The notes under the pieces are model-generated. The model saw only the letters and a list, made by a program, of their open reading frames with translations, did not search any database and was not told the origin of the DNA. The position numbers and the translations under genes are program-made. Positions 20,206 to 50,237 of a stretch of 64,000 bases of DNA are shown here, one piece after another (the stretch's first letter is position 1; each line of letters begins with the position of its first letter). The DNA comes from Pirellulales bacterium (lineage in GTDB: Bacteria; Planctomycetota; Planctomycetia; Pirellulales; PALSA-1355): the NCBI GenBank assembly GCA_963733035.1, contig CAVTBU010000006.1, forward strand, positions 224,001-288,000, read 5' to 3'.

Positions 20206-20211
20206 CTCGAT

Positions 20212-20285: not shown

Positions 20286-20295
20286 CTGTCAACGC

Positions 20296-20368
20296 GGCTC
20301 GGTCGGCAACGGCAGACCACCTTGGCTTAGAACCAAGGATGCTGTGGGTTCGAATCCCACCTGAGCTA
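20296..20368 (+). tRNA. tRNA-Leu(TAG), short variable loop
   Basis: CTTGG-CTTAGAA-CCAAG. Confidence 0.85.
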
Positions 20369-20382
20369 TTTAGTAGAGACTC

Positions 20383-20457
20383 GTCCTCGTGGAGTAGTCT
20401 GGAGTGCTCGCCTGCCTGTCACGCAGGAGATCACGGGTTCAAATCCCGTCGGGGACG
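20383..20457 (+). tRNA. tRNA-Asp(GTC)
   Basis: CCTGC-CTGTCAC-GCAGG; G73. Confidence 0.92.
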
Positions 20458-20539
20458 CCTTTTGATTGTTGTACGCGAAATCGTCTGTGGCGCGGAGTGT
20501 TCCGCAACGCCTCGACGAACTGCAACGCAACGTAAATCT

Positions 20540-20613
20540 GGCACGGTACGCCAATCGGCTGAGCGGCGAAGCTCAAACCTTCGTGTCTGCGGGTTCGACT
20601 CCCGCCTGTGCCA
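20540..20613 (+). tRNA. tRNA-Leu(CAA), short variable loop
   Basis: CGAAG-CTCAAAC-CTTCG. Confidence 0.85.
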
Positions 20614-20619
20614 CTGTTC

Positions 20620-20706
20620 GGGTTGTGCTCCTCGTGGCGGCCTGTAAAGCCGTTGTCACAAAAGAAGCGAGGTGGGCGACGAATGGTTCGATTCCTTCAC
20701 AACCCA
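20620..20706 (+). tRNA. Atypical tRNA-Tyr(GTA) lacking a D hairpin
   Basis: Acceptor GGGTTGT/ACAACCC; GCGGC-CTGTAAA-GCCGT; T loop TTCGATT; only ~10 nt in D region. Confidence 0.7.
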
Positions 20707-20711
20707 ATTGA

Positions 20712-20784
20712 GGCCCGCTCGTCTATCGGTTGAGGACGCCAGCCTCTCAAGCTGGAAGGACGGGTTCGATTCCCGTGCGGGTCA
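20712..20784 (+). tRNA. tRNA-Glu(CTC)
   Basis: CCAGC-CTCTCAA-GCTGG. Confidence 0.9.
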
Positions 20785-20790
20785 CTGTAT

Positions 20791-20873
20791 GGCCAAGTGG
20801 TGTAACTGGTAAACACGCGACGCTCAGAACGTCGTGCCCTTGCGGCGTGGGAGTTCGAGTCTCCCCTTGGTCA
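20791..20873 (+). tRNA. tRNA-Leu(CAG)
   Basis: CGACG-CTCAGAA-CGTCG; long variable arm. Confidence 0.9.
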
Positions 20874-20890
20874 CTGAAATATTGAATTGA

Positions 20891-20959
20891 CGCAGGTGAG
20901 CCAGTGCTCAGCCGAGTTTCATAAGCTCAGCCCGTCGGGTGCGACACCCGAACCTGCAA
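20891..20959 (+). tRNA. Atypical initiator-like tRNA-Met(CAT)
   Basis: C1:A72 mismatch; loop TTCATAA; T loop TGCGACA. Confidence 0.7.
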
Positions 20960-20964
20960 CTTAC

Positions 20965-21040
20965 GGCCGGGTACGCAAACTGGCAAAGCGACGAGGTCGA
21001 GAGCCTCGTGATTTTGTGAGTTCGACTCTCACTCCGGTCA
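20965..21040 (+). tRNA. tRNA-Leu(GAG), C33, short variable loop
   Basis: CGAGG-TCGAGAG-CCTCG. Confidence 0.82.
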
Positions 21041-21069
21041 CTTGAATGAGATTGCGGCCAAAACTGATC

Positions 21070-21507
21070 CTACAGTGCGAGCACGCGGCACACCTCTCGA
21101 ATCCAGATCTCACCGATCCATTCCAGGTCGGCATACGGAGAGATGCGTGAAGCGGTCCAGCCGCTTTCGTCGAGTACTCGCATCATGCCGGGTGCCGCCA
21201 AGGCGTTCGTTGTGTGGATGATCACTGGGCATGTCGGCGGTTTCGTCGCGAGAAAGTCGGCCACATCGCGTCCGGTGCCGGGGTCACGCATGACACCGCC
21301 GATCAATCGGTTGGGTCCGAGATCGTGATCGAGGCAGATGAGAATCGGTTCGCCGCAGTGAACCTTCAGCCAGACGATCATATCTGGTGCATTGTCGAAC
21401 ACAATTGATTCATGGCCTGGGCAGCGACTTGCGAGGCACGGCAACATTGCGGCGATCCGTTCCGGCTCGTCGTCAAGAATTGCGACTACTTTTGATTCGC
21501 TTGCCAT
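21070..21507 (-). CDS. Cyclic-phosphate-processing receiver-like domain protein
   Basis: ILDD, LDHDLG, GTGRDV, IHTTN motifs. Confidence 0.7.
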   Translation of the reverse strand: MASESKVVAILDDEPERIAAMLPCLASRCPGHESIVFDNAPDMIVWLKVHCGEPILICLDHDLGPNRLIGGVMRDPGTGRDVADFLATKPPTCPVIIHTTNALAAPGMMRVLDESGWTASRISPYADLEWIGEIWIREVCRVLAL

Positions 21508-21533
21508 GTCAACAAGTCTAACAAATCACATTC

Positions 21534-21606
21534 GATCCCGTGGTCCAACGGCTACGACGCCTGGATGACACCCAGGAGGCAGATGGTTCAACTCCATCCG
21601 GGATCA
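21534..21606 (+). tRNA. tRNA-Val(GAC)
   Basis: CCTGG-ATGACAC-CCAGG. Confidence 0.88.
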
Positions 21607-21616
21607 TTTGCGAATC

Positions 21617-21688
21617 GGTCTGTAGGTGTGTTCGGCGGCACACCTCCTCGGTAAGGAGGAAGGCCGGGTTCGACTCCCGGACGGACCT
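21617..21688 (+). tRNA. tRNA-Thr(GGT), C33
   Basis: CCTCC-TCGGTAA-GGAGG. Confidence 0.82.
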
Positions 21689-21757
21689 TCAACCGAGCAC
21701 GCGACATAGGCGTGCCGCGAGCGCAGGGCGAAAGGAATCGAGATGGATAGAAGTGAG

Positions 21758-21790
21758 GGGCTGCTGGTCCAACGGCAAGACGCTTGGATT
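21758..21790 (+). pseudogene. 5' half of a tRNA-Ala-like gene; 3' half replaced by a hairpin
   Basis: GGGCTGCTGGTCCAACGGCAAGACGC nearly identical to 5' end of tRNA-Ala at 21838. Confidence 0.6.
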
Positions 21791-21837
21791 GAAGTCAGCG
21801 TCGATGGCAACGGCGGATCGACGCTCGTCAAATACAT

Positions 21838-21908
21838 GGGCTGCTCGTCCAACGGGAAGACGCCTGGCTTGCAACCAGGAAATCGGGGTTCGACTCCCCG
21901 GCGGTCCA
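21838..21908 (+). tRNA. tRNA-Ala(TGC)
   Basis: CCTGG-CTTGCAA-CCAGG; G3:U70. Confidence 0.9.
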
Positions 21909-21919
21909 CTGAATAAAAC

Positions 21920-21990
21920 GGGCTCATGGTCCAAAGGGAAGACATCAGGCTGGCAGTCTGAAGATCCGGGTTCAATTCCCGGTGAGTCCA
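21920..21990 (+). tRNA. tRNA-Ala(GGC)
   Basis: TCAGG-CTGGCAG-TCTGA; G3:U70. Confidence 0.88.
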
Positions 21991-22008
21991 CTGATACGGG
22001 AAACCTTT

Positions 22009-22311
22009 TTACATCGGAATACCGGCATCAATCGCAGCTTGTCGATTGTGGCCGGGTTCGAGAAGTGTCGTTCCTTGATAGACCTCGACGTTCGCGTCCA
22101 TGAGATCAGAAAGAGGCAGCTCAACATAGACCTGGGTATTACGGTCGGTCTCGACAACGTTGAACCACGGTTGTGCAACGAAACTGCGCACCTGGATTTC
22201 CAGTGACTCGCCGGGCAACAGCGTGAAGTCGTGAGGCCACGGCTCGACCCAAATGACGCGCAATTGCGCTTCGTCGTTGGTCACGCCGATCTTTGCGAAG
22301 AACTCACTCAT
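22009..22311 (-). CDS. Hypothetical protein between tRNA genes
   Basis: 100-aa ORF; WVEPW motif. Confidence 0.65.
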   Translation of the reverse strand: MSEFFAKIGVTNDEAQLRVIWVEPWPHDFTLLPGESLEIQVRSFVAQPWFNVVETDRNTQVYVELPLSDLMDANVEVYQGTTLLEPGHNRQAAIDAGIPM

Positions 22312-22443
22312 TACCCTAGCGTATTGCGGAAGCGTACGACAAACAAGTGATTCGGAAGGTAGATGCTATGGCAGCGGCGAGGGACTGCGTTAGGCTCCGA
22401 GTCACGAGGGATTGTTTTATCCGTTGTTTTGAGGAGCTCAATC

Positions 22444-23622
22444 ATGGCCACTCGACCGCAAGACTGCAGCACAACGAAGCCAGTACTGTTCCTGGGTCTC
22501 GAATTAGGGCAGCGAACCTGGAAGTTGGGGTTCACCGTGGGTTTGGGTCAGAAGCCGCGGCGACGTGAGATCGCTGCCGGTTGCATTCAGGCACTGAAAC
22601 GAGAGATCAATGAGAGTAAGCAACGTTTTGGTCTGCCTGCGGATGTGGAGGTGATTAGCTGTTACGAGGCAGGCCGTGATGGGTTTTGGCTGCATCGTTG
22701 GCTGGTGTCTGAGAACGTCACAAACTTGGTGGTTGACTCGTCTAGCATTCAAGTGCCGCGGCGGCAGCGACGGGCCAAGACCGATCGTCTGGATTTGGAA
22801 CAATTGTTGACCATGTTGGTGCGCTGGCATCAGGGCGAGTCGAAAGTCTGGAGCGTGGTGACGGTGCCGAGTGAAGCGGAAGAGGACGTTCGGCATTTGC
22901 ATCGCGAGTTGGAAACGCTGCGGGCGGAACAGACCAGCCACATCAATCGAATCAAGGGGCTGTTGATCGGTTGCGGCGTGGTGATTGATGTGAACCGCTG
23001 GCTACCGAAACGGCTCAAAGCAATACGGCTTTGGAATGGCTCGCCGTTGACCAGCGATTTGCGGCAACGGGTATTGCGGGAGTTCGAGCGGATGCAGGTG
23101 GTCAATCGACAGGTTCGCGAGCTGGAAAAGGAGCGTGCCGCCCGGATTCGCAGCAACGAAACTGACAAGAGCGTCGCCCAGGTGCGGACGTTGTTGGGCG
23201 TGAAGGGCATCGGCGTCAACAGCGCGTGGATGTACGTGCAGGAGGTGTTTGGCTGGCGAAAGATCAAGAATCGTCGTCAATTGGGTGCGCTCGTGGGGCT
23301 GACCGGCAGTCCGTATAGCAGCGGCAACTTGGAGCGCGATCAGGGAATTACAAAGGCTGGAAACCGCCGGATGCGAACAATGGCTGTCGAAATCGCCTGG
23401 GGATGGTTGGCATTCCAACCCGGCAGCGATCTGAGCCGTTGGTATCACGATCGATTCGCGGCCGGAAACAAGCGTCTTCGTCGCATTGGAATTGTGGCGC
23501 TGGCAAGAAAGCTGTTGGTGGAGTTGTGGAAATACCTGGAGACCGGCGTGCCGCCTTGCAACGCGGAGCTGACCGAGTGGGAGGACAAGATTCACTACAC
23601 CCCTTCCCTTACGCCGGCGTAG
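22444..23622 (+). CDS. IS110-family transposase/recombinase
   Basis: LGLELG, CYEAG, KTDRLD (DEDD fold); GVKGIG, PYSSG, ITKAGN; GAGGAG before ATG 22444. Confidence 0.95.
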   Translation: MATRPQDCSTTKPVLFLGLELGQRTWKLGFTVGLGQKPRRREIAAGCIQALKREINESKQRFGLPADVEVISCYEAGRDGFWLHRWLVSENVTNLVVDSSSIQVPRRQRRAKTDRLDLEQLLTMLVRWHQGESKVWSVVTVPSEAEEDVRHLHRELETLRAEQTSHINRIKGLLIGCGVVIDVNRWLPKRLKAIRLWNGSPLTSDLRQRVLREFERMQVVNRQVRELEKERAARIRSNETDKSVAQVRTLLGVKGIGVNSAWMYVQEVFGWRKIKNRRQLGALVGLTGSPYSSGNLERDQGITKAGNRRMRTMAVEIAWGWLAFQPGSDLSRWYHDRFAAGNKRLRRIGIVALARKLLVELWKYLETGVPPCNAELTEWEDKIHYTPSLTPA

Positions 23623-23669
23623 CGATTGGATCGGTGCGAGTATGGAGCGTCTGAACGACTGACGTCGAG

Positions 23670-23855
23670 ACTGGAAAGCGACCGAGTATCCGGCGGGTAC
23701 GAGTTAGGCTCACCGAAAGGTAGATGGGATCGCTTTCATTATGGCTTCCCGAGAGCGTCCAGGACGCATAGGGCATAGGGTGATCGGCGATGATGCCGGC
23801 ACGGATAGAAGCTAGTCGTTGGCCTCGGCCACAACGATCAGCGGAAGCCGCCAGT
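23670..23855 (+). ncRNA. Predicted bridge/seek RNA of the IS (also at about 40932-41117)
   Basis: Two stem-closed internal loops with segments matching target and donor junctions. Confidence 0.72.
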
Positions 23856-24218
23856 CATGACGTTGAACCGACAGAAGAAGTGTTTTGAGGAATGGCAGGA
23901 CAAATGAATGTGCATCCCAGCACGGCTCCAGCCGCGGCGTGCGGCCAGAGCCGTCACGGAATCATTCACCCGCCCTGACCTGGCTATCCCTTGTTGGGTT
24001 GCTCTTCAGCAGAGCTCAACTCCGTTTCACCAGGCAGGCGAAAGTATATCACGACTCAACGTTGGATGAGGAGCTTGACAGGTGCGCATCCATAGAAGCC
24101 GGATACGGTTGGCCGGGCCGCTCTGCTAAGGCGGTTCCCGCTCGTCGGGATGAGGGTTCGAATCGGGCACCGCGGCAAAGCCGTGGTCTACCTTCCGCTG
24201 GTGAAAAGGCTCCTCCAA

Positions 24219-24581
24219 TCACTTCGCCTGTTCCACGTCGATCGCGGCCCGCAGCTCCTCAACATTCGCGAATTGTTGAAGTGGAAGATCGAACGAGTAG
24301 TCGAGATCAATGATTCGAAGGGGGATGCCGAGATGCCTTTGAACGATCAGCGCGGCACTTAGGGCGGCGTCTGTCATCCCCGATATCGAGATCGCGTCGC
24401 GTTTCCGGCTGAGGTCGACCATCGTGAAGTCGTCGCCCTCAGAATAGTCCGCTTCAATTGGGATTCCGATGGACGTATTATATCGAATCTCACCGAATCC
24501 CCTGACCGACTTGAAAATGTCTTGCAACGCCTCGACGGTAAATAGCCGTTTGTCGTCGCTGAACAGCAGAAGACTTTGCAT
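24219..24581 (-). CDS. Hypothetical protein, candidate immunity protein
   Basis: Directly downstream of nuclease-toxin ORF; GGAG RBS. Confidence 0.6.
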   Translation of the reverse strand: MQSLLLFSDDKRLFTVEALQDIFKSVRGFGEIRYNTSIGIPIEADYSEGDDFTMVDLSRKRDAISISGMTDAALSAALIVQRHLGIPLRIIDLDYSFDLPLQQFANVEELRAAIDVEQAK

Positions 24582-24596
24582 AGCAATTACGTACTC

Positions 24597-25867
24597 CTAG
24601 GGCTCGAGTCGCACCTTGCCGGGCACGGATAGTTCCTTGAGCAGGGCTTCAAAAGCTGACTTCGCCTCGGGCGAGTTGGTGATGATTTCGATTGATTTAA
24701 AAGGCGTTTCGCCACTCTTGATAATTGTGCGAACTCTCGTCAAATCGTCACGCACTTTGTCCAGAATCACGGCCCGGATGTCCTCTCGGATAGATGAGCC
24801 GGGCACATAAGGACTCTTGCCGGCCTTCGCTACGTGCTTCGCTTCAAGAATTATCGTATCCCGGTATCCATCGATTGCAAAAGACTGGCCGCCGCCTGAT
24901 ATCGTGTAGTTGTAGGGGCCGGTCTGCTTGATTTCATATTGACTCGCTGCCGATTTCGTGGGTGTAGGCTTGCGAGGAAGCTTCGCGACGAAGTCATCAA
25001 GAGTGCCTCCCACTTTTCCAGGAACTTTGCGAAGCGCCCTGCCGAGCACAGCCTTCCCGAGTCGCAGGATTGCCGGTGCGGCCACGACGGCGGATGCAAT
25101 TTCAAACTCAATGCCGGTTGACTGCAAACCACTCGGTGTGCCGCCCCTGGCTACGGCATGCCCGACTTCCTCGATACCCTTGCCACCGACGATCGTCTCT
25201 GCCGGGGTGAACGCCGAATGCTGTTTCGCTGGGCGTGATAGCTCTTAATGCGTTTCGGCAATTCCTTGATTTGGCGACGGGTGTGATCCAATGCATTCTT
25301 TGTCTGCCACCAAGCGTGTGCCAGGTCCAGCATGTGTGAGTCGGAACCGTCGGACTCGTCGCTTCCGCCGCTACCGGGCCCCTTGCTGCGGGGTGAGCGA
25401 CTCTTGCCGGTGTTGATTCCGCCCCCACCGCCCCCCTTATTGATCCACTGCCCGCCGATCGGCGTTCCCTTGGGCGCCCGGGGATGATCGGCCTCGTTCC
25501 ATTCGACAACAAGTGAGTCTGATTCAGTGAATCGCTCGATCGCATGCCACGTCCTGCTGTCCCGTGCCTCGATCTGTTGAATCGCACGCAGTTTGTCTTC
25601 CGCCTCGGCCGAGATCTGAGCTGCCCATTCCAGAAGCTCACGATCGCGACGAGCGTTGGCTTCGGCGGATTGCAGCTCGCGCAGCTCCTTTGCCTGTCGA
25701 TACGAGAATCGTGCTAGCCGCCCCAACTCCTCGCGTTGAGCTTTCGCCTGTGCCTCGGGAGGCATCATTCGTGGAATCGGCCTACCGAGAATCGCTTGTG
25801 CAAATAGCCAACCTTCGCTGGGCTGCGAAACTCCGGCGACATCCCGTGTCTTTTTGTAACGGTCCAT
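24597..25867 (-). CDS. Polymorphic-toxin-like protein with C-terminal restriction-endonuclease-fold domain (frameshifted near 25130-25230)
   Basis: LFAQAILG, RDRELLEW shared with 14049; HPRAPKG..GGQW; IDGY...LEAK PD-(D/E)XK motif. Confidence 0.6.
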
Positions 25868-25891
25868 GACGCTCCTCTTCATGGGTGCGAG

Positions 25892-26034
25892 AAAAAGAGC
25901 CCGCACCCGGTGCGCGCTTCGCAAGCGCGCACCGATTACGGGCTCTTTGGATACTCGTTGTCAGGGGCCTACTGGCACGAGGACGTGCAGTCGAGCTCTT
26001 CGGATACCCCGGTCACTCATGGTGACCTTGCCCA
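25892..26034 (-). promoter_or_regulatory. Structured leader/terminator, second copy
   Basis: Homologous to 13876-14017 with covarying stems. Confidence 0.65.
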
Positions 26035-26179
26035 GCGATCAGCTCGCCGATTGATTCGGAACCTAGCACAAAGGGCGGCCTAGTTTCTAGTCGAAGATTT
26101 AATGGAGTGATTGGTCTGAGCAAATACGTCGCGCGAACCGTGCGGCGTGGATCTGTTTCCTTTTCTAATGTCTCAGCTC

Positions 26180-26269
26180 GCCTCGATGGTGAAACGGACG
26201 ATCACTCCTTGCTTCTAACAAGGCCCGGTATTTCTGGGAGACGCGGGGGTTCGAATCCTGGTCGGGGCA
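26180..26269 (+). pseudogene. tRNA-Arg(TCT) with hairpin insertion at variable loop/T stem
   Basis: CCTTG-CTTCTAA-CAAGG; 17 nt longer than intact copy at 41457. Confidence 0.75.
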
Positions 26270-26368
26270 TTTTGAAGAAGAGTGGTTGGTGGTCAGTGGC
26301 TAGTGGTCAGTGAAGCAAGGGGCGGCGAACACAAAGCGTGCTCGTCTGTCCTACCTGTGGCCTGTGGT

Positions 26369-26436
26369 CTACCGCCCTGCGCTCGGCAGATGCCCATCTG
26401 CCGTGCTCGGTTGCTGGTTCAATTCCTCGGCGAGGC
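26369..26436 (+). pseudogene. 3' remnant of tRNA-Arg(TCG) fused to hairpin micro-element
   Basis: GGTTCAATTCCTCGGCGAGGCA matches 3' end of tRNA at 42884-42956. Confidence 0.7.
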
Positions 26437-26616
26437 ACTGAGAAGGCGGCGAGTTGAATGATCATGTTGCGAGCGATCCTAACAGCGTTGAGACGATTCC
26501 TGTTTGGCCAGCCTGTGGCCAGCAGGGTGACCGCGAAGAAACCGTCGGCAGAAGCCGTCGCGTGTGCGGTCGTTCATTCGACGACGTCGGCGGATCGCAA
26601 CGAAGGGAGGCCTACC

Positions 26617-27108
26617 ATGAACGCAGCCTATGACAAACTATGCGAACACCTGACCAACCAGAACGTCGGCTTTTGGTCGCGCAGCGAGGACTTGTCGATC
26701 TGCACCGACTTTCGGGGCGAGGTCGGTACGTACCGGATCTTCGCTCGGATTGATGCTGATGACAGCTTGTTCCAGGTCTTCGGTCATTCGCCGGTTCGCG
26801 TTCCGCCAGGCTCGCGGCCGGCGATCGCCGAGGCCGTGGCGCGGATCAACTGCGGTCTGAAGGTCGGCAAGTTCGAGATGGATTGTGACGAGGGCGAGCT
26901 GCGGTTCCAGGCGGCCCAGATCCTGCCCGACGACGATCTCGACGAGCAGACGATTCGGCGACTGATTGGTACGACCATGTCGATGTTGAACATTTACCTT
27001 CCGGCCATCTTGTCGGTCATCTACGGCAACGAACTGCCGAAGGATGCCGTCAGACACGCAGAGCCCGGGCGGTATGTGTCCGACGAAAACGAGCGCGGTG
27101 AGGCCTGA
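26617..27108 (+). CDS. YbjN-domain protein, copy 1
   Basis: AEAVARINCGLKVGKFEMD..GELRF; GGAGG RBS. Confidence 0.8.
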   Translation: MNAAYDKLCEHLTNQNVGFWSRSEDLSICTDFRGEVGTYRIFARIDADDSLFQVFGHSPVRVPPGSRPAIAEAVARINCGLKVGKFEMDCDEGELRFQAAQILPDDDLDEQTIRRLIGTTMSMLNIYLPAILSVIYGNELPKDAVRHAEPGRYVSDENERGEA

Positions 27109-27121
27109 TCACCGCGCATTT

Positions 27122-27194
27122 GTCCTCGGAGTGTGCCGGATTCGCACGCGACCCTGCGAAGGTCGAGGACCAGGTTCAACTCCTGGCGAGGACA
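27122..27194 (+). tRNA. tRNA-Arg(GCG)
   Basis: CGACC-CTGCGAA-GGTCG. Confidence 0.85.
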
Positions 27195-27241
27195 TTTTGG
27201 AATGTCGCGGGATTGTGTACCGTAGTAGCGGGAGACACTCA

Positions 27242-27706
27242 ATGAACTTGCAGCATGAAAATCACGGTCCCTTGCCGACGCGCGAGGACATTAATGTCTT
27301 CGACTCGCTTGACGAACGTTGCGCTTGCGATCACTTTTTGGGCAAGAACATGGACGAGGCTCAGGCACTGTTCAGTGATAATTTCTTGCGTTACCAGGAG
27401 GATTTGGTGTTTATGGGGCCTCGTGCCTTCCGCTTCTACGTTCATGCTGCCATGCAATACCTCATGAGCCCCGATGCCTCAGGTGACGGCGATGCCGCCA
27501 ACAGTTTCGCAGGGCTACTTGAATTCAGACTTGAACATGAGAGGAACGAAGTGCAGCCAGTGGCAGGTGAGCTAGCGCGGATATGCAATTACCTCTTCGA
27601 AAATATTAGTCGATTCGAATGTGAGCCATCCATCTATGGCGATGTTGGCGCTCGTTATGCAGCTCTGAATAGCGCGCTCGAACAACTCGCCACGACACAG
27701 CCCTAA
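27242..27706 (+). CDS. Hypothetical protein between tRNA genes
   Basis: 154-aa ORF, GGGAG RBS; EDLVFMGPRAFRFY. Confidence 0.7.
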   Translation: MNLQHENHGPLPTREDINVFDSLDERCACDHFLGKNMDEAQALFSDNFLRYQEDLVFMGPRAFRFYVHAAMQYLMSPDASGDGDAANSFAGLLEFRLEHERNEVQPVAGELARICNYLFENISRFECEPSIYGDVGARYAALNSALEQLATTQP

Positions 27707-27750
27707 CCCAACATGGTCCGGCTCGTGCAGCAGCATCAATTCTCAAATCT

Positions 27751-27822
27751 GACGCTGAAGCCAGACGGCGTGGCAACTGCCTGCAAAGCAGTTCACAGCG
27801 GGTTCGACTCCCGCCGGCGTCT
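27751..27822 (+). tRNA. tRNA-Cys(GCA)
   Basis: ACTGC-CTGCAAA-GCAGT; U73. Confidence 0.88.
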
Positions 27823-27846
27823 TTCAACGAAGTCAGAAAGGAGATT

Positions 27847-28358
27847 GAAGCGAGGTTGATTCAGCCGGTTCCAGCGGCGCGCGGTGGCTCGTCCTTGATG
27901 AAAGGCGATTGCTACACGTGTGTTCCGTGAATGGGTTCTGCAGAAGGCTGCGTCTACCGCAACCAACAGATGGTTAGCTCAGTGGGTAGAGCACCAGACT
28001 TTGCATCTGGCTGTCACGGGTTCGACTCCCGTACCAAACGCGGCGAAAGCCGCCCGAGGGGCGCCGGTCAGCGCCGTCCAACCGCCCGCGGGGGCGGGCA
28101 AGCCTAGGTCTGCCGCTGGCATTGTGCTCGCATGGCGCGGTTTCGCGTCGTGACGTGTCACATGTCGGTGGCAACACAAGACGGTGCCTTGCAGTGCGCA
28201 GATTCCGCTTGTGCGAGTCCTTGGCAACGACGAACCGACGCCGTTGGCAATGCGAGAGCCATGCTCACGCAGCGCCTTCGGCTGAGCCAAACTGGCGCCT
28301 TGGATAGCACAAGCTCAAGCGCACTCCGCATACGGATGTGGGACCGACGTCTCGCTTC
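27847..28358 (+). ncRNA. Large structured ncRNA with embedded tRNA-like domain, copy 1
   Basis: Terminal stem GAAGCGAG/CTCGCTTC; covariation against 44509-45026; tRNA-like core 27971-28036. Confidence 0.7.
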
Positions 28359-28439
28359 GCCCCCAAGGGCATTTTTATGCGAACTAACTCGGTGGCTCGG
28401 ACGTCCAATACGTTCATGCACCGAGAGGAGGAATAAACA

Positions 28440-29354
28440 ATGAATATCTACATCATCAAGACCATCAAGATCCGCAGCTACGAAATGGGTCTGTACTTCC
28501 GCGACGGCGAGTTCCGTGGCTTGCTGCGCGAAGGTCGCCACTGGTTCGTAGATCCGCTGGGGAAGGCCAAGATCGAGGTCGTATCGCAGCGGCAGCCGTG
28601 GCTGGCGCACGAGAAGCTCGACGTGATCTCGCGCTCGGGTGCGCTCGAGGACCGCGCGGTGGTGCTGGACCTGAAGGACTACGAACGGGCTTTGGTCTGG
28701 ATCGATGGTCACTTCAGCCACATCCTGCCGCCGGGCCTGTACGCCTACTGGACGGCTCTGCGTGACGTGAAGGTCGAGGTGGTCGATGCCCGCAAGGCGC
28801 GGTTCGAGCACCCGGATCTGAAGGTCATCCTGCAGTCGCCGCTGGTGGACCGTGTGCTGTCGCTGGCGACGGTGCAGGCGCACCACATGGGCGTGTTGTT
28901 CATCGACGGCGACTTCGTCGAGACGTTGCCGCCGGGCCGCTACGCCTTCTGGAAGAACCTGGCTCAGGTCAAGTTCGTCGAGGAGGATATGCGCGAGGCG
29001 ATGTTCGACGTGGCCGGCCAGGACATCATGACGGCCGATAAGGTGACGCTGCGAATGACCGAGCTGATGGAGAAGTTCCCGGTCCACGTGGTGTGCGGCT
29101 GGACCGGCAACAGCGAGGCGATCGCGCTGAAGCACTACCTCCAGGTCACCGACGACCATTTCGAGCGGGCCGTGCGGGGCGAGGCCGAGATCGGGCCGGA
29201 AGTCACGCCGACTGTTACCAACACTCTCGCCAACACAACGGCGCAAAAGCGGCGCAGCATGCGCACGCAGGGGGTAGCGGCGAGCAGCAGGCGGCTCAGG
29301 GCACCAACGCAAAAGCCCCGGGATTGCCGGGGCCTGCGACTTCCCGCGATATAG
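28440..29354 (+). pseudogene. Truncated slipin (SPFH) fused by deletion to integrase C-terminus
   Basis: Matches slipin at 45109 up to KVTLRM (about 29057), then TELMEKFP.HVVCGW.GNS of the integrase at 53755 onward. Confidence 0.88.
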
Positions 29355-29649: not shown

Positions 29650-30360
29650 CTACTCTGAACCAAGCCGATACCCGATGCCTGGCTCGGTCAGTAGATACTG
29701 GGGGCGGGAGGGGTCGGACTCGATCTTGCGGCGCAGGTGGGCCATGTAGACGCGGAGGTAGTGCGTCTCGAACACGCTGTCGGGGCCCCAGACTTCCTTG
29801 AGGAGCTGCCGGTGGGTGACGAGCTTGCCGCCGTGGCGGATGAGGGTCGTCAGCAGCCGATGCTCGATGGGAGTGAGGTGCACCTCCTTTTCGCCGACGA
29901 AGACCTGGTGTCGGCCGAAGTCGACGCGCAGCTCGCCAAGGGTGAACACGGGGGCGTCTGCTTCGGAAACTTCTGGCAACCGCCGCAGCGCCACTCGGAC
30001 GCGGGCCAGTAGTTCGCCGACGCCGAACGGCTTCGTCAAGTAATCATCCGCGCCACTGTCGAGTGCCTTGATCTTGTCGGCCTCGTTTCCGCGCGCGGAC
30101 AGGACGATGATCGGGACATTCGACCACTGGCGCAGCTTGCGAATCACCGACAGCCCATCGATGTCCGGCAAGCCCAGGTCCAGCAGCAGCAAGGCGGGCT
30201 TCTCGTCCTTCGCTTTCTGCAGCCCATCCTCGCCTGTCGGCGATTCCAGCACACGATATCCACTGCCGAGCAACGTGGCTCGCAGGAATCTGCGAATCTC
30301 TGCCTCATCCTCGATGATGAGGATTCTTGGGAATTGAGCCGGGACTGGTTCCTTAACCAT
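29650..30360 (-). CDS. kdpE: Response regulator KdpE
   Basis: Receiver plus OmpR wHTH; HYLRVYMAHLRRKIE, TEPGIGYR. Confidence 0.93.
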   Translation of the reverse strand: MVKEPVPAQFPRILIIEDEAEIRRFLRATLLGSGYRVLESPTGEDGLQKAKDEKPALLLLDLGLPDIDGLSVIRKLRQWSNVPIIVLSARGNEADKIKALDSGADDYLTKPFGVGELLARVRVALRRLPEVSEADAPVFTLGELRVDFGRHQVFVGEKEVHLTPIEHRLLTTLIRHGGKLVTHRQLLKEVWGPDSVFETHYLRVYMAHLRRKIESDPSRPQYLLTEPGIGYRLGSE

Positions 30361-30366
30361 TTTGCA

Positions 30367-33127
30367 TCAGGACGTAAGGCTGCCTGGGCCGGCGGATTGC
30401 TGCGGCGTTGTTGCGTTCACTATCTCAACGTCCCGCGGCGGTGGGCCATCGGACACGAACTCCAGGCGAAACGCGGCACCACCCCCTTCGCGATTTCGGG
30501 CGCTGCGCGCCCGCCATGAGCATCCATGATGGCACGGCAGATTGCCAGTCCCAGCCCCGCCCCGCGCGAATCGGACTTGGCGTCCTCGCCACGCTGGAAC
30601 CGCTCGAAGATCCGCTCCTCGTCCCCTGGCTTCAATCCAGGGCCGTGATCGGCGATCTCCAAAATCGTCTTACGTCCGTCTTGCCAGGCACGGATCTCAA
30701 TGGCCGTTCCGGCCGGCGTGTACCGGCAAGCATTGTCCAACAAGTTCACGATGGCCTGCTCGACCAGGACGGCGTCTACGTGCGCGAGCAAAACTTCGGG
30801 CGGCAGATTGACGTTTACGGGCCGATTCGCGAGCGTCCGATCGAGCCGCCGCAGGGCCGAGGCGACGATCTCTTCGACCGGCTGCCATTCCTTGCTGATT
30901 GCCGGCTTTTCGGAGGACGAAAGCTGCGTCATTCGCAGGATGTTCTCCACCAGCCGCGACAGGCGATCGGATTCTTCGAAGACGGTCTCCAGCAGTTCGC
31001 GTCGCGTCGGTTCGTCCATCGATGTACCACCGTGCAGGAGGCTGCTGGAAGCCCCGACGATCACGGCCAGCGGAGTGCGCAAGTCATGCGAAATGGAGGA
31101 AAGCAGCGTGCTGCGAATCCTCTCCGTCTCCGCCTGTAGATGCGCCTGGTCCGACTCAAGCGTGAGCCGATCGCGCTCGATCGCCAAGGCAACCTGCGTC
31201 GAGTAGTTTTCCAGGATTTGCCGGTACTCGGGCAGGAGAAGTTTAGCGGCGTCGCTGTGGCGAACCGCCAAGACACCCATCGTTCCGCTGGGAGATTGGA
31301 GCGGAAGGTAGAGCGCCCGGGCGGAGGGCAAAGTATCGGTGCCGTGGCCAGCCGGCTGGCCGTGGTCAAATACCCACTGCGCGACGGCAATCTCGGACGG
31401 ATCGGCGGCGAATCGAGCGCGGTGGTCCAGGATCGGCTGTAACTTGCCGGCACGCGACAGGAATACGGCCGTGTCGCCGCCGAGGAACTCCGAGACGGCA
31501 CGTTCCGTTTCTGCCGCGATGAAATCTTCGCCCACGATGCCGGTAAGCTTGCGGCCCAAGCGATAGAGGGCCTCGATGCGTCGTTCGTTTCGCCGGGCGG
31601 ACTCGGCCTGGCGTCGGACCCGCGCCGTTAGAGCCGCAATACTAAGCCCTGCAACGAGCATCACCGCAAACGTGATCAGATACTGTGTGTCGTTGACAAC
31701 CACGGTGTAATACGGCTGGGTAAAGATCACATCGAACAGCGCGACCGACACGACCGACGCCACGATCGAGGGGCCTCGCCCATACCGGAACGCGACGAAC
31801 ATCACGCCCAGGAGGTAGGTCATCACCAGATTGGCTTCGGTCAGGCCTGCGCGATGCCAAAGTAACGAGACGGCAGTGCACGCTGCCAGAACGATTGCCG
31901 TTCCGATCCAAGCACGCCACCGAAAACCAATCGTAGACGGAGTGGACGGCGGCGCATGCGGCACCAGCTCGGCGGTTCCGTGGATCACGTACACGTCAAT
32001 GTCGCCGCTCTCGCGAATCAACCGGTCCGCAGGCGACTGCCGTGGCCGGAACCATCCGCGCGTCAACTCGGACTTGCCGACGACGATCTTGGTCACGTTG
32101 CGCTCTTGAGCGTACCCGATCGTCTCGGCGACAAGGTCCTCGCCGCTTACGGTGGCGGTTTCCGCTCCCAGGCGCTCGGCGAGTCGAAGATGCGCGAGCA
32201 GCCGCGCGCGATCCTTCGCGGACATCTCGCCCGATTGCGACGATTCAACGTTGATGGCAATCCACTCGGCTCCCAGGGACTCGGCCAAGCGCTTGGCCGC
32301 GCGCACCAGCCTGGCTGACGTGGGGCTGGGACCGACGCAAACCAGCAGTCGTTCGCGGGTGGCCCACACTTCGTGCCGGGCGCGAGCGAGCCGGGCGGTC
32401 TGCACGTCGGCGTGCACGCGTTCCGCCGTGCGGCGGAGAGCCAGTTCTCGCAGGGCGACGAGATTCTCCTTGCGGAAGAAGTTCTCAAGCGCCCTTGCAG
32501 CTTGCGCCGGGATGTAGACTTTTCCCTGCTCAAGACGCTCGAGCAGGTCCTCCGGCGGCAGGTCGATCAGCGTCAGCTCGTCGGCCCGATTGAAAACATC
32601 ATCGGGCACGGTTTCGCGCACGATGACGCCGCTGATCTGGGCAACGACATCGTTGAGCGATTCGACATGCTGCACATTGCAGGTCGTGTTGACGTTAATT
32701 CCGGCGTCCAACAGCTCTTCGACATCCTGCCATCGCTTCACGTGTCGCAGTGATGGCGCATTCGTGTGTGCCAGCTCGTCGACGAGAATCAGTTCCGGTT
32801 TTCGTGCCAAAGCCGCATCCAGGTCAAATTCTCTCAGCGTCGTTCCGCGATAGGGAGCCTCCAGGGCGCAAGCCGCTCCAGACCTTCGAGCAGCTTCTCG
32901 GTTTCGGGCCGCCCGTGCGGTTCGACGTAGCCCACGACGACGTCCGCGCCCGCGGCTTGCTCGCTGCGAGCATCAAGCAACATGGAATACGTCTTGCCGA
33001 CACCCGCGGAGTAGCCGAAGAATACTTTCAAGCGACCGCGCTTTGCCTGGTCGGATGACTCCGTGTCTCCCTCCGTCTTGAGACGAGCCAGCATCTGCTC
33101 GGGTGTGGGGCGATCACTGTCGGTCAT
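30367..33127 (-). CDS. kdpD: Sensor kinase KdpD (frameshifts near 32860 and 30500)
   Basis: GRLKVFFGYSAGVGKTY, VDELAHTN, SHDLRTPL. Confidence 0.92.
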
Positions 33128-33711
33128 GGCGCGGCATTCGCTGGCGGCTTAGCAAGTTGGTCAAGGGCCACGTTAAGCTCGAGAATATTGACGATCGGCT
33201 CTCCTCCCAGAGCGACGATCGTCGGAGAGTCAATGTGCTGGCGAACCAGCTCTTCTACCTGCTCCGGCCGAAGGTTTCGCGCATCAGCCACCCGTGGCAC
33301 CTGAAACATCGCAGCGGCCAGCGAAATGTGGGGGTCCATTCCCGAGCCGGATGTCGAGACGAGGTCGGCCGGAACGAGTTGCCCCGCATCGGGCTTTAGC
33401 TCGCCGATGATCTGCCGCGCTTTTTCCGTGAGCAAGGGATTCCTGGGCGACAAGTTGCTGCCTCCGGTGGCACTGGCATTGTAGTCGCATGCCGAGGGCC
33501 GCGGCCAGAAGTAGTCGTGTCGTGAGAAACCCTGCGCGAGCAGCCGCGAGCCGATGATCGTTCCGTCGGAACTCCTTACGAGGCTTCCCTGTCGCGACTG
33601 CGGCGCGGCGAGCACGGCGAAGCCCAGAATGACGGCCGGGTAAGCCACCGAGCAGACCAGAAGGCTCAATAAGAACAGTCGCAATGACGTGATGATGTCT
33701 CTCATGTTCAA
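33124..33711 (-). CDS. kdpC: K+-transporting ATPase subunit C
   Basis: YFWPRPSA, SGSGMDPHIS, NILELNVALD. Confidence 0.95.
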   Translation of the reverse strand: MNMRDIITSLRLFLLSLLVCSVAYPAVILGFAVLAAPQSRQGSLVRSSDGTIIGSRLLAQGFSRHDYFWPRPSACDYNASATGGSNLSPRNPLLTEKARQIIGELKPDAGQLVPADLVSTSGSGMDPHISLAAAMFQVPRVADARNLRPEQVEELVRQHIDSPTIVALGGEPIVNILELNVALDQLAKPPANAAP

Positions 33712-33736
33712 TTCTTTCTCACCCCGGGGCCAAAGG

Positions 33737-35823
33737 CTATGCCAATCCGAGGCCCGACAGGACCAAGTCGATCAACTTGATTCCCACAAACGGCACCACC
33801 AATCCGCCCAAGCCGTAGATGAGCAGGTTCCTCCGCAACAAAGCGTCGGCTCCCACGGCCCGGTAGCGCACGCCCCGGATCGCGATGGGAATGAGGCACG
33901 GGATCACGACGGCATTGAAGATCACGGCCGAAAGGATGGCACTCTGAGGCGTGGCGAGCCGCATGATGTTCAGCACTTCCAACTGAGGCAGTGCGACCAT
34001 GAAGATCGCCGGGATGATCGCGAAGTACTTGGCGACGTCGTTGGCCACGCTGAACGTGGTCAACGCGCCGCGCGTCATAAGCATCTGCTTCCCCACCGAT
34101 ACGACGTCAATGAGCTTGGTCGGATTCGAATCGAGGTCGACCATGTTGCCGGCTTCCTTGGCGGCCTGTGTCCCGGTGTTCATCGCCACGGCCACGTCGG
34201 CCTGAGCCAGGGCAGGGGCATCGTTGGTGCCGTCGCCGGTCATGGCCACGAGATGCCCGTCTTTTTGATACTCCCGGATGAGTTCCAGCTTGGCCTCGGG
34301 CGTGGCTTCCGCGAGAAAATCATCAACGCCTGCCTCTGCGGCGATCGCAGCGGCCGTCTTGGGGTTGTCGCCGGTAATCATTACCGTCTTGATGCCCATG
34401 CGGCGCAACTCGATGAAGCGTTCTTTGATCCCGCCCTTGACGATGTCTTTCAGGTAAACGGTTCCCAGTACACGGCTATTCTCGGCAACCACAAGCGGCG
34501 TCCCGCCGGCGCGGGCAATCACGTCCACATCGTGTGCGACTTGCTCAGGAAAATCGCCGGCCTGTTCGTCTATAAATCGCCGGATCACGTCGGCCGCGCC
34601 CTTGCGGATGCGCCGACTGTCGAGGTTGATCCCACTCATTCGCGTGCGGGCCGTGAAGTTGACAAACTCGGCCTGCTTTGCTTCCAGCTCCCGGCCGCGG
34701 ATGTTGAACCGCTCTTTGGCCAGGACGACGATGCTGCGCCCCTCGGGCGTTTCGTCAGCTAGTGAGGCCAGTTGGGCCGCATCTGCCAGTTGCCTCTCTT
34801 CGATTCCAGACGCGGGCCGGAATTCGGTGGCTTGGCGGTTCCCTAGCGTGATCGTGCCCGTTTTGTCCAACAGGAGCACATCCACGTCACCGGCAGCCTC
34901 GACGGCGCGGCCGGACATGGCCATTACATTCGCCTGGCTCAGACGCGCCATGCCGGCAATGCCAATCGCGGCCAACAGCGCGCCGATCGTAGTAGGTATC
35001 AGGCAAACCAGCAGGGCGACCAGCGTTGGCACGTCGATGGTCACATCGAAGTATTGCGCAATGGGATAAAGCGTCGTGCAGACCATCAGGAATATCAAGG
35101 TGAAGCCGGCCAGCACGATGGTCAGCGCGATCTCGTTGGGGGTTTTTTGACGCTCCGCTCCCTCGACCATCGCAATCATGCGATCCAAGAAGCTTTCGCC
35201 GGGTCGGGCCGTGACGCGAATCACTAGATGGTCCGATAGCACGCGTGTTCCGCCCGTGACGGCTGAGCGGTCGCCACCGCTTTCGCGAATCACCGGAGCA
35301 CTTTCGCCGGTGATCGCCGATTCATCGACCGAAGCGACGCCCTCGATGACTTCGCCATCGGCGGGAATCGTCTCGCCGGCTTCCACACGCACAAGGTCGC
35401 CGTTTTTCAACTCGGAGGCCGGCACGTCTTCGACAGTGGATTGGCTTTGATCGACGAACCGATGAGCGGTGACGTCTTGCCGCGCCTTGCGCAGGCTGGA
35501 CGCCTGGGCGCGCCCCGCGCCTCGGCCACGGCCTCGGCGAAGTTCGCGAACCAGTCCGTCAGCCACAGCCACACCGAGATGGCGAGGAAATAGCCGGTGC
35601 CTTCGCTTCTGGAGACGGCCGCCGAGAGCGTTGCCAATGTGGTCAACATGGCTCCAAGCTCCGTGACGAACATCACCGGGTTGCGGGCCATTGACCATGG
35701 GTTCAGCATTTTGATGGCCTGGCCGACCGATGGCAGCAGCATCCTGGCGGTGAAAAGCGACTTCTCCTTGCGAAAGGACGAGCCCCCGGAAGAGCCGCCG
35801 GCCGACATTGCTTCGACTTGCAT
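33737..35823 (-). CDS. kdpB: K+-transporting ATPase subunit B (frameshift near 35515)
   Basis: [30 protein letters not shown]. Confidence 0.95.
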
Positions 35824-35841
35824 GGAGTTTGGCCCTTCGAA

Positions 35842-37512
35842 TCAACGCGGATTGAGGTGTTCGGCGATCGGACCCAGCATCGCCAAGGGCAGGAACAACA
35901 AGGCTCCGACAATGAGGATCGTTCCCAGCAGGACGACGCCGAACAGCAGCGTGTCAGTGCGGAAAGTGCCGGCGGTCTCGGGAGCAGCCCGCTTGGCAGC
36001 CAATGAGCCAACGATGGCCAGCGGCGCGATGATGGGGATGAACCGACCCAATAACATGACGACTCCCGTGGCGATGTTCCACGGCACCGTGTTATCTCCC
36101 AGACCCTCAAAGCCAGACCCGTTGTTGGCGGCCGCGGAGCTGAACTCGTAGACGATTTCGCTCAAGCCGTGGCTGCCAGGATTGTGCAGCGTGTCCAGAC
36201 CCCACGACGTGTCTGCGAACAGCGCGGTCCCGCCCAGGATGAACAGCGGATGAGCCAATAGCGCGATCAGCGCCAGCTTCATCTCCTTGGTTTCCACCTT
36301 GCGAGTGAGATACTCCGGTGTGCGGCCGACCATCATGCCGGCCAGGAATACCGCAGTAATCACGAACAGGAACATATTGATAAGCCCCACCCCGACGCCC
36401 CCGAACACGACGTTCAGCCACATCCCGGCCATCGGCACGATGCTCGTCAGCGGGTTCAGGCTGTCATGCATCGCGTTCACGCTGCCGTTGCTGGTCGAAG
36501 TGGTCGACACGGCCCATGTCGCACCGGCAGTTGTGCCGAAGCGCAGCTCCTTGCCTTCGAGGTTCATCGAATGCGCGACCGGCAAATCCTCTAAGGCGGC
36601 TGTCGGCTGGCTTTCAAGCCAACAAGCAGAGACGACGAAGCTCAGGTAAAGCGCCAGCATCACGCCGAAGAGCACCGCCGCGTGCCTGACGCGAGCGGTG
36701 ATGCGGCCGAACATCCAGACGGTCGCCATCGGCACAAGCAGGATGGCAATGTTGGAAAGCACGTTCGACCAGAACGTCGGATTCTCGAAAGGATGCGTGC
36801 AATTCGGCCCGAACCAGCCTCCGCCGTTCGTGCCCAATTGCTTGATCGCGATGAAGGCCGCCACCGGGCCACGGGCGATCGTCTGCGTCGCGCCTTCGAG
36901 CGTTGTGGCGACCGCCGCACCTTCCAGCGTCATGGGCACCCCGCAAACGACCAGCAGACCGGCCCAGACGATCGACAGCGGTAGCAGGATCAGGGCCGCC
37001 GCTCGCCAGACGTCTTGATAGAAGTTGCCCAGGCGCGAGAACCCTGCGAGCCCTCGGGCGAGCGCCGTGACGACCCCGATGCCCGTCGCCGCACTGACGA
37101 ACTGCAGCCACATCAATGCCCCAAGCTGAGAGAAGTAGCTGAGCGATACTTCACCTGAATAGTGCTGTAAGTTTGTGTTGCTGGTAAAGCTGGCCGCGGT
37201 ATTGAAGGCCAGGCTTGGTTCGATCGGGCCCTTGTCATCGGGATTGAGCGGCAACCACGGCTGAGTCGTCAATACGAGATACGCGAACACGAACATCAGC
37301 AGATTGAAGGCCAACATCGAGACGCAGTACTGTTTCCAACTCTGCGGCCGGCATATCTCATATCCAAGCAGCGCCACGCACGCTTTGTCGTAGCGGACGC
37401 GAATTGGTCCGGCGTCGCTCGGATCCATCGCCCACTGCATGTATCGCGCCAGCGGCCAAGAGAGGACGAGCGCTACCACGACGACGATTGTTGGAATAGT
37501 CAAACCGAGCAT
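35842..37512 (-). CDS. kdpA: K+-transporting ATPase subunit A
   Basis: [30 protein letters not shown]. Confidence 0.97.
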
Positions 37513-50236: not shown

Positions 50237-50237
50237 G

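Follow-up and report, generated by a model that had tools for sequence, protein, structure and literature searches.

The Locus

A 64,000-nt stretch of a Pirellulales genome (GenBank assembly GCA_963733035.1, contig CAVTBU010000006.1, positions 224,001 to 288,000), referred to here as the window, carries two copies of a structured RNA element of ~530 nt. Each copy lies between an array of tRNA genes that ends with tRNA-Cys(GCA) and a gene encoding a slipin, a protein with a Band_7 (SPFH) domain. The element belongs to a widespread family of structured RNAs, ~500–600 nt in length, that occur just upstream of a gene for an SPFH/slipin protein without a membrane anchor. Coordinates of all features in the window are collected in Table 1.

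A preliminary description of this DNA, made from the sequence alone, had proposed that both arrays are followed by a large, noncoding RNA with an embedded tRNA-like core. The two copies are indeed present, with a mean column identity of 92% over 721 alignment columns and 86% identity over 604 nt by BLAST. They are separated by indels of 5, 11, and 1 nt, and their lists of open reading frames (ORFs) differ, in agreement with the claim that no ORF is conserved. A protein-coding reading of the region is ruled out, since the ORFs are unlike between copies and the indels are not multiples of three. The 66-nt core, referred to below as the tRNA-like domain (TLD), is identical in both copies, as described. 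Each core scores 51.1 bits against the Rfam tRNA model (RF00005; gathering score, 29; model positions 4–67 only), and each shows D, anticodon, and T arms together with a 4-bp UGGU/ACCA acceptor. ARAGORN predicts 45 tRNA genes in the window, and neither core is among them.

A third, internally deleted remnant of the RNA exists elsewhere in the same genome (L003; G000 contig C5, ~2678900–2679070, minus strand), where it adjoins a tRNA-Leu(UAA) gene. Its 5′ start (..GGUUGAUUCAGCCGGUUCC) is joined straight to the middle of the 3′ domain (equivalent to 28179–28243, 85%).

Distribution and Linkage to Slipin

Remote relatives of the element were detected by BLAST or nhmmer and by anchoring to slipin genes. 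BLAST searches within the family and order of the host returned full-length relatives at 65–89% identity, as well as many partial ones. A slipin gene is located downstream in 45 of 51 order-level candidates, and in 42 of these it lies 341–611 nt from the start of the TLD. The same pairing is seen when slipin is used as the starting point. For instance, among 80 loci encoding slipin orthologues (54–94% identity) in species-representative genomes, nhmmer placed the RNA directly upstream and on the same strand in 74, with 50 of these matches spanning nearly the whole model. Four of the six slipin loci that yielded no match have almost no upstream DNA. One locus (L080) was skipped because its RNA is far from its slipin, and another (L140) was left out of the slipin alignment on account of a stop codon.

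By record title, the hosts belong mostly to the Planctomycetota, including Pirellulales, Gemmataceae, Isosphaeraceae, Gimesia, Bremerella, and Phycisphaerae. Others are metagenome-assembled genomes (MAGs) labeled Hydrogenedentota, Acidobacteriota/Thermoanaerobaculia, Calditrichia, and Lentisphaerales, representing at least four other phyla by label, with the reservation that MAG labels can be wrong. The remaining neighbors of the RNA and slipin are heterogeneous housekeeping genes, so the two constitute the conserved unit. A tRNA gene occurs within 150 nt upstream of the RNA in just 29 of the 74 slipin-anchored loci (tRNA-Cys in 17) and is lacking at that distance in the other 45. Therefore, the position 3′ of tRNA-Cys given in the preliminary description holds for this window and not in general, and to be attached to tRNA arrays is a habit of particular lineages. 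Comparative evidence of two kinds, a covarying fold (see below) and genetic pairing with slipin, lends strong support to the broader claim that a large structured RNA acts together with slipin.

Apart from tRNA, none of the families in Rfam 15 came near its gathering score at E ≤ 10, either in positions 27700–28500 or in the window as a whole; this includes GOLLD, ROOL, OLE, raiA, and HEARO. These results bear on a reading in which the element forms an RNA-only, homo-oligomeric particle like that of ROOL or GOLLD, and slipin is merely a co-regulated neighbor. The size, ornate structure, and place beside tRNA arrays are similar in kind, and ROOL, GOLLD, and OLE are described as homo-oligomeric (PMC12286853). 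However, the lack of an Rfam match to ROOL, GOLLD, or OLE, and linkage that follows slipin rather than tRNA genes, make such a particle very unlikely here.

Structure and Covariation

The family alignment comprises 99 non-redundant members, after 17 of 116 sequences were dropped as near-duplicates before covariation was counted. It was produced with hmmalign from a hidden Markov model (HMM) of a 43-sequence alignment, and variable hairpins (H1, the tip of P7, and P10–P11) are consequently poorly aligned. Covariation was scored by a G-test with average product correction (APC) over 120,295 column pairs. Covariation among homologs, which the preliminary description had proposed as a check, was found: a 105-pair model of the RNA contains 18 of the 20 strongest covarying pairs and 32 of the 40 strongest, and double (compensatory) changes are seen in 84 of its pairs.

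Pair counts on each half of the molecule agree with this model. In the 5′ half (alignment A2), 93.4% of cells are paired vs. 86.0% after shuffling and 31–43% with slid partners; the corresponding values for the 3′ half (alignment A5) are 78.2%, 66.2%, and 35–45%, with double changes in 48 of 55 pairs. None of 500 shuffles reached the observed value in either half. The single-sequence fold of copy 1 has a free energy of −255 kcal/mol (z = −5.2), and none of 100 shuffled sequences was equally stable.

It could be argued that the element is a functionless, decayed tRNA-His pseudogene or an integration scar with hitch-hiking flanks. The core does resemble tRNA-His, the locus is an island with IS110 copies, and an internally deleted fragment of the RNA is present elsewhere in the genome. 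Nevertheless, compensatory changes across 99 sequences from several phyla effectively refute this explanation, and the copies, despite differences of 8–14% elsewhere, share a 100% identical core. Its probability is close to nil.

At the 5′ end of the RNA is a conserved single-stranded motif whose columns are made up of A (57 of 59 letters), G (61 of 61), and A (59 of 65), and for which no covarying partner was found in the family alignment. The motif runs into the 5′ domain, where near-invariant joining strands (CCAGCGGCGC and GUUCCG..AUGGGUU) accompany helix P2 and the irregular hairpin that it encloses. In an alignment-free test of P2, cognate duplexes had a mean free energy of −17.1 kcal/mol vs. 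−12.7 kcal/mol for non-cognate ones, and were below the median non-cognate value in 50 of 54 cases. The TLD follows, and then two variable hairpins, H1 and H2. H1 is absent from some relatives and is 52% paired in the HMM alignment, where it is poorly aligned. A long-range helix, L1, spans 258 nt and closes the 3′ domain. The inner part of L1, L1b (28090–98/28356–64), consists of 9 bp that are 93% paired (92.7% on alignment A5), with 23 extra pair types and double changes in all nine pairs.

Internal stems of the preliminary description fared differently from its closing stem. Family-wide support was obtained for GGCGC/GCGCC (28060–64/28071–75, corresponding to H2), with 89% standard pairs and 15 extra pair types, and for GCCGCUGGCA/UGUCGGUGGC (28112–21/28163–72), whose first six pairs are 87% paired. 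The 5′ strand of a third stem, TGGCTC/GAGCCA, lies at 27885–90 and is occupied by the covarying local helices P4 and P5. A stem between the two ends of the RNA, GAAGCGAG/CUCGCUUC (27847–54/28351–58), had been described as closing the whole region. It can be formed in this genome and is used by the minimum-free-energy (MFE) fold; across the 99 members it pairs in 53% of cells and was rejected as a family feature on that basis. Since its 3′ strand also overlaps the strongly covarying L1b, the stem can be no more than a local alternative.

The tRNA-Like Domain

The TLD was located in 96 of the 99 members. Its stems are 99–100% paired in the family, and pairs of the anticodon stem, T stem, and Levitt interaction rank among the top covarying pairs. 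For example, the tertiary Levitt pair (G15:C48) covaries between GC (35 sequences) and AU (3 sequences). Matches of 59 nt to the TLD at ~80% identity proved to be tRNA-His(GUG) genes in the three loci checked (L012, L026, and L028), and to judge from this likeness, the TLD body is derived from, or resembles, tRNA-His.

Decoding features are less well kept than the overall shape. Three to five consecutive acceptor pairs are found in 84 of 96 members, and seven, as in a canonical tRNA, in just one; the element described here has four. The anticodon loop is 7 nt long in 86 of 93 members. Among these 86 loops there are 33 different triplets, many of them with A34, which is rare in bacterial tRNAs, and the U33 of canonical tRNAs is kept in 53 and lost in 33. 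The drift of the triplet, the loss of U33, and the short acceptor indicate that selection maintains the L-shape and the arm rather than decoding, and by these sequence features the TLD is not a working tRNA. A T-box-like pairing of the anticodon with a codon in the same molecule was considered as well and ruled out: no column triplet pairs with the TLD anticodon in >16% of 37 sequences, no other site in the RNA was found to covary with the triplet in these sequences, and complementary codons show no enrichment (406 vs. 379 ± 18 in permutations).

The same features weigh on a decoy role, which the preliminary description had offered as an example of function. As a decoy or sentinel, the TLD would soak up, or be cut by, the anticodon nucleases of phages or toxins, and thereby shield real tRNAs or signal an attack. 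The retention of an anticodon arm with a 7-nt loop would fit, as would the tRNA arrays of 30 and 14 genes, the conflict-type genes within them (HEPN_AbiV, Tox-REase-2, and HNH), and BrxL nearby. On the other hand, the anticodon loop is what anticodon nucleases read, and here its triplet is free to vary, U33 is frequently lost, and no codon-like partner covaries with the triplet. In addition, a decoy would leave 450 nt of conserved flanking structure and the obligatory slipin unexplained. Because the triplet is not conserved, the idea has lost ground and is considered distinctly unlikely.

The Slipin

The slipin gene downstream of copy 2 is intact. No hydrophobic segment or anchor was recognized in its product by eye, and a profile search against PDB matched stomatin (7e-26). 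The AlphaFold2 model (predicted local distance difference test score, 84.5) contains an SPFH domain in addition to three five-stranded beta-repeat modules and a helix of 60 residues, and so has the SPFH domain plus C-terminal coiled-coil helix of ring- or cage-forming members of the SPFH/stomatin family. When the model was searched with Foldseek, stomatin was matched at 7e-18, and the best matches were the ring- or cage-forming proteins stomatin, HflK/C, prohibitin, and QmcA. Chains of the major vault protein align with it over 404–420 columns, almost the full length of the slipin.

The slipin of copy 1 is like that of copy 2 only to about residue 213 (88.7% by tblastn over residues 1–213), beyond which the sequence is unrelated. 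Its Pfam Band_7 match is confined to positions 2–62 of 176. The end of the ORF (..GWTGNSEAIALKHYLQVTDDHFERA) is, in our judgment, reminiscent of the C-terminus of a tyrosine recombinase. The gene is probably a truncated or fused pseudogene at the boundary of the island.

Ends, Promoters, and a Link to RNA Repair

In 63 of 83 members, L1 has a U-rich run on its 3′ side. The gap between the RNA and slipin contains a GAAC-N17-CGTC motif, which we take to resemble promoters of extracytoplasmic function (ECF) sigma factors; counted over the 200 nt that precede slipin, it is present in 41 of 99 members vs. 3–14 of 99 in three control regions. A scan of 27650–28520 found no sigma-70 promoter. The window also contains an ECF sigma factor gene, at 12313–12879.

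One member of the family, from the Phycisphaerae (L124), is linked to RNA repair genes. It comprises a divergent rtcR gene, a sigma-54-type promoter (TGGCAC-N5-CTGC), a full-length RNA, slipin, and rtcA, in that order. As the RNA lies behind the operon promoter and has no U-run, it is formally a leader in this member.

A cis-acting leader or attenuator is the main rival explanation for the family as a whole. The RNA would then be the 5′ untranslated leader of slipin (and of rtc genes), with the fold of L1 and the U-run setting read-through, perhaps upon binding or cleavage of the TLD. Such a role would account for the position of the RNA directly upstream of, and on the same strand as, slipin in 74 of 80 loci and for the arrangement in L124, with its promoter ahead of the RNA and no U-run between the RNA and slipin-rtcA. 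The combination of L1 with a U-run is terminator-like, and in this genome the L1 strands can form alternative local hairpins, which are the ones used by the MFE fold. However, a molecule of ~500 nt with >15 conserved helices and a full tRNA L-shape, complete with covarying Levitt pair, exceeds the needs of known attenuators. Moreover, 41 of 99 members have a promoter-like motif between the RNA and slipin, and the RNA of copy 1 is intact beside a truncated slipin gene. Position within an operon also has a precedent of another kind, as Y RNAs act in trans even though their genes lie within the rsr-rtcBA operon (10.1101/312249). A leader and a processed, stable RNA are not mutually exclusive. Overall, a leader is a real possibility, albeit one that we consider improbable.

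Genomic Neighborhood

The tRNA arrays of the window are interleaved with other genes (Table 1), and also contain a YbjN gene. A comparable set is known from Anabaena, in which a tRNA-array operon, RtcB, an HNH gene, and slipin are co-induced under translational stress (PMC10272220). RtcR was not found in the present genome, and the cREC_REC ("cyclic-phosphate processing receiver") protein encoded inside array 1 may have a regulatory role in which RNA ends are the signal. The RtcB of this genome (G000 contig C5:873071–874377) matches its Pfam model as two overlapping segments that lie in different frames (model positions 1–228 and 213–426), a split that may reflect a frameshift or an assembly error.

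The whole region has the appearance of an island duplicated around the kdp locus, because arrays with matching IS110 elements flank it. A bridge RNA belonging to these IS110 copies was among the candidates for the element and was dropped; a distance of ~4–5 kb separates the RNA from them, and the linkage seen in relatives is to slipin rather than to IS110. Three of the tRNA genes called by ARAGORN are unusually long. Rfam gave only 31.8 bits for Arg(UCU) and listed no match for the 92-nt Cys(GCA) or the 89-nt Ala(GGC), and these genes may carry insertions or be decayed members of the arrays.

Table 1. Features of the RNA, its slipin gene, and the surrounding region, in coordinates of the window
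Feature	Position	Strand	Details
RNA copy 1	27847–28376	+	~530 nt; between tRNA-Cys of array 1 and slipin gene
5′ single-stranded motif	27845–27856	+	Here UUGAAGCGAGGU; family consensus UUCAAGCAAGG; GGU end joins helix P2
5′ domain	27855–27958	+	Helix P2 (27855–66 with 27946–58) around long irregular hairpin; RNAalifold
Helices of 5′ domain hairpin			P3a CCA/UGG 27871–73/27932–34; P3b 27875–77/27925–27; P3c 27878–83/27917–22; P4 27884–88/27911–15; P5 27889–93/27904–08
tRNA-like domain (TLD)	27971–28036	+	Acceptor stub 27971–74/28033–36; D arm 27977–92; anticodon arm 27994–28010 (loop CUUUGCA); T arm 28016–32; Levitt pair G27982:C28015
Variable hairpins	28040–28075	+	H1 28040–53 (GCGGC-GAAA-GCCGC); H2 28060–75; by eye on alignments
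L1, 5′ strand	28084–28098	+	GCCC..GGGGGCGGG; family consensus GCCCGAGGGAGGCGG; pairs with 28356–28370
3′ domain core	28107–28345	+	P6 28107–11/28341–45; arm P7 28112–28172; stacked arm of P8 28175–78/28337–40, P8b 28182–87/28328–34, and P9 28193–99/28319–25
3′ domain, variable distal part	28200–28318	+	P10 and P11, weakly supported
L1, 3′ strand, and probable 3′ end/terminator	28356–28376	+	UUCGCCCCC AA GGGC, then A + U5 (28371–76)
GAAC-N17-CGTC motif	28381–28405	+	In RNA–slipin gap; copy 2 equivalent ~45051–45075
Slipin gene, copy 1	28440–29060	+	Truncated; ORF continues to 29354
RNA copy 2	44509–45043	+	TLD 44633–44698; L1 strands 44741–55 and 45024–38; U-run 45040–43
Slipin gene, copy 2	45109–46221	+	Intact, 370 aa; Pfam Band_7, E 8.7e-31
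tRNA array 1	17456–27822		30 genes; ends with tRNA-Cys(GCA)
tRNA-Cys(GCA), final gene of array 1	27751–27822	+	ARAGORN; Rfam 50.1 bits; RNA begins ~25 nt 3′ of gene
tRNA array 2	38190–44483		14 genes; ends with tRNA-Cys(GCA)
tRNA-Cys(GCA), final gene of array 2	44412–44483	+	ARAGORN, Rfam
Long ARAGORN tRNA calls	26180–26269; 38190–38281; 39265–39353		Arg(UCU), 90 nt; Cys(GCA), 92 nt; Ala(GGC), 89 nt
cREC_REC protein gene	21070–21507	−	Inside array 1
Tox-REase-2 gene	24597–25127	−	Interleaved with tRNA arrays
HNH nuclease gene	41648–42244	+	Weak likeness to IscB/Cas9 HNH domains
HEPN/AbiV gene	43748–44407	+	Interleaved with tRNA arrays
BrxL-like Lon ATPase gene	48689–50356	−	Adjoins DUF3987/Toprim gene
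IS110-family transposase ORFs	22363–23622; 39625–40884		Both 419 aa; matching places in the two arrays
kdpABC-kdpDE locus	29650–37512		Complete; flanked by the two arrays

Interpretation

By analogy with known RNA–protein particles, the RNA is best explained as the cognate RNA subunit of a vault-like SPFH scaffold, operating in a module for tRNA damage or translational stress. We regard this explanation as somewhat probable. The RNA would serve slipin as a Y RNA serves Ro60, or as vault RNA serves the vault. The two domains that flank the TLD would dock on, or organize, an oligomeric SPFH ring or cage, while the exposed tRNA elbow and anticodon arm would present a tRNA-shaped handle to factors that recognize tRNAs for repair or processing when tRNAs are damaged or translation is under stress. 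In this genome, the RNA might be made as the final unit of the tRNA-array transcript, with a 5′ end released when the 3′ side of tRNA-Cys is processed and a 3′ end set at L1 and U5, and slipin might be transcribed from its own ECF-type promoter. The U-run after L1 and the promoter-like motif ahead of slipin favor a discrete RNA, and the gene order in L124, the cREC_REC, HNH, HEPN/AbiV, and YbjN genes of the arrays, and the co-induction in Anabaena favor a link to repair. The analysis establishes the family, its structure, and its genetic linkage to slipin and, in one member, to rtcR and rtcA; physical binding to slipin, the transcript ends, and a role in RNA repair are what we infer.

Several points weigh against the explanation of the RNA as a scaffold subunit. 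The case for RNA–slipin binding is one of genetic linkage, and copy 1 retains its RNA despite a truncated slipin. RtcB, RtcA, and RtcR genes were not found in the window; RtcB is encoded elsewhere in the genome, unlinked and on another contig, and in the genome assembly (92% complete) RtcR was not found and Ro60/TROVE (PF05731) had no match. In L124, the one member flanked by rtc genes, the RNA sits behind the operon promoter without a U-run. With respect to structure, the distal helices P10/P11 and H1 pair in just 49–70% of cells. A terminator consensus scan, which seeks a local G+C-rich hairpin and a U-run, gave no match at 28352–28376, where the helix is long-range. Metatranscriptome contigs of relatives, from four runs in three studies, cover 27903–28375 with only patches on slipin, and none from these runs lies on 27200–27775. 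However, they are no evidence of a discrete transcript, as the runs were chosen for holding the stretch, the contigs lack ends and strand, and carry-over of DNA is possible. Finally, the 2016 paper that predicted the b7a-tRNA, a band 7-associated tRNA discussed below, may already describe the flanking RNA.

A bolder form of the scaffold-subunit explanation is conceivable, although we think it rather unlikely. The RNA and the membrane-free, vault-protein-like slipin might together form a bacterial cage ribonucleoprotein, with slipin organized by, or enclosing, the 530-nt RNA and with the elbow recruiting damaged tRNAs or repair enzymes. Such a particle would be a prokaryotic counterpart, possibly a forerunner, of vault and Ro/Y-RNA particles, and would amount to an interphylum two-gene module that plugs into either RtcR-controlled repair operons or spare-tRNA arrays.

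If the scaffold-subunit explanation is correct, a new large structured class, absent from Rfam and with ~100 non-redundant examples in several phyla, would join the few bacterial RNAs of >500 nt. Most other classes lack a constant protein partner and a plausible pathway; this one would have both, its pathway involving tRNA damage or translational stress, Rtc repair, and spare-tRNA arrays. A ten-year-old in silico prediction, that of the b7a-tRNA, would become a concrete object with defined domains and helices. Furthermore, a simple bacterial system would be at hand for asking why dedicated tRNA-like RNAs are retained by SPFH/vault-type cages and Ro-type rings. Carriers are available in culture, for instance a Bremerella strain, L126.

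Comparison with Known Systems

The element has features in common with GOLLD, ROOL, OLE, raiA, and HEARO, which are likewise noncoding, several hundred nt in length, rich in conserved helices, and often situated beside tRNA genes or in mobile DNA. ROOL and GOLLD in particular are often found near tRNA genes. Unlike these RNAs, with which it has no Rfam-level match, the present one contains a tRNA cloverleaf module and has an obligatory protein-gene partner.

With the vault ribonucleoprotein, the resemblance concerns mainly the protein. Slipin is modeled with beta-repeat modules, an SPFH-like "shoulder," and a long helix, and would be, like the vault shell, a protein scaffold genetically tied to a dedicated noncoding RNA. 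Major vault protein has nine repeats, and vault RNAs are transcripts of roughly 100 nt that are unrelated to the RNA described here. In contrast to the ~800 aa of the matched vault chains, slipin has 370 aa and three predicted repeats, and both cage formation and RNA binding are predictions in its case.

YrlA, a Y RNA encoded with Ro60 (Rsr) in the arrangement rsr-yrlBA-rtcBA, offers a parallel for the RNA. Its tRNA-mimicking module has conserved D and T arms that point to recognition at the elbow (10.1101/312249). In both systems, a noncoding RNA with a tRNA mimic that lacks a free CCA end is found beside a gene for a scaffold protein that is ring-shaped, or in the case of slipin predicted to be so, in RNA-repair contexts. 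The topology differs, however. The YrlA module has a closed loop for an acceptor and passes into the Ro-binding stem on its anticodon-stem side. The TLD has instead an anticodon arm that ends as a free hairpin, and it continues into the rest of the RNA through its acceptor stub. The covariance model of YrlA (RF02553) gives the element 19.4 bits (E 0.27) vs. a gathering score of 69. The present RNA is also 4–5 times longer, and no TROVE gene was found in the 92%-complete genome.

A further counterpart is the b7a-tRNA, a noncoding RNA adjoining Band-7 genes in RtcB neighborhoods that was predicted by Burroughs and Aravind (NAR 2016) and never validated, as summarized in 10.1101/312249. It is said there to "strongly resemble[s] an authentic tRNA," which implies the size of a tRNA. 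By that description, the TLD is most probably the b7a-tRNA. The preliminary description had presented the whole RNA as possibly new, and this appears to hold for the surrounding ~450 nt, in line with the lack of a match to large-RNA families, and not for the tRNA-like module, which was predicted in 2016. No description of the large RNA was found in the literature, subscription journals and the 2016 paper lying outside the search; term searches gave no occurrence of "tRNA" in a survey of SPFH proteins in P. aeruginosa (PMC13086221) or of Band-7, SPFH, tRNA-like, or b7a in the RlaP preprint. The ~450 nt of conserved structure around the TLD thus appear to be undescribed in the searchable literature, as do the architecture, the multi-phylum spread, and the attachment to tRNA arrays.

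Like the b7a-tRNA as summarized, the TLD is a tRNA-like, non-decoding element beside a Band-7/SPFH gene, here with 51.1 bits for tRNA, 8.7e-31 for Band_7, and linkage in 74 of 80 loci. In one family member, L124, the full-length RNA lies between rtcR and rtcA with a sigma-54-type promoter. In contrast to the b7a-tRNA as summarized, the tRNA-like part makes up 66 of ~530 nt, with a conserved, covarying domain on either side, and the module in this genome is detached from rtc genes and attached instead to tRNA arrays.

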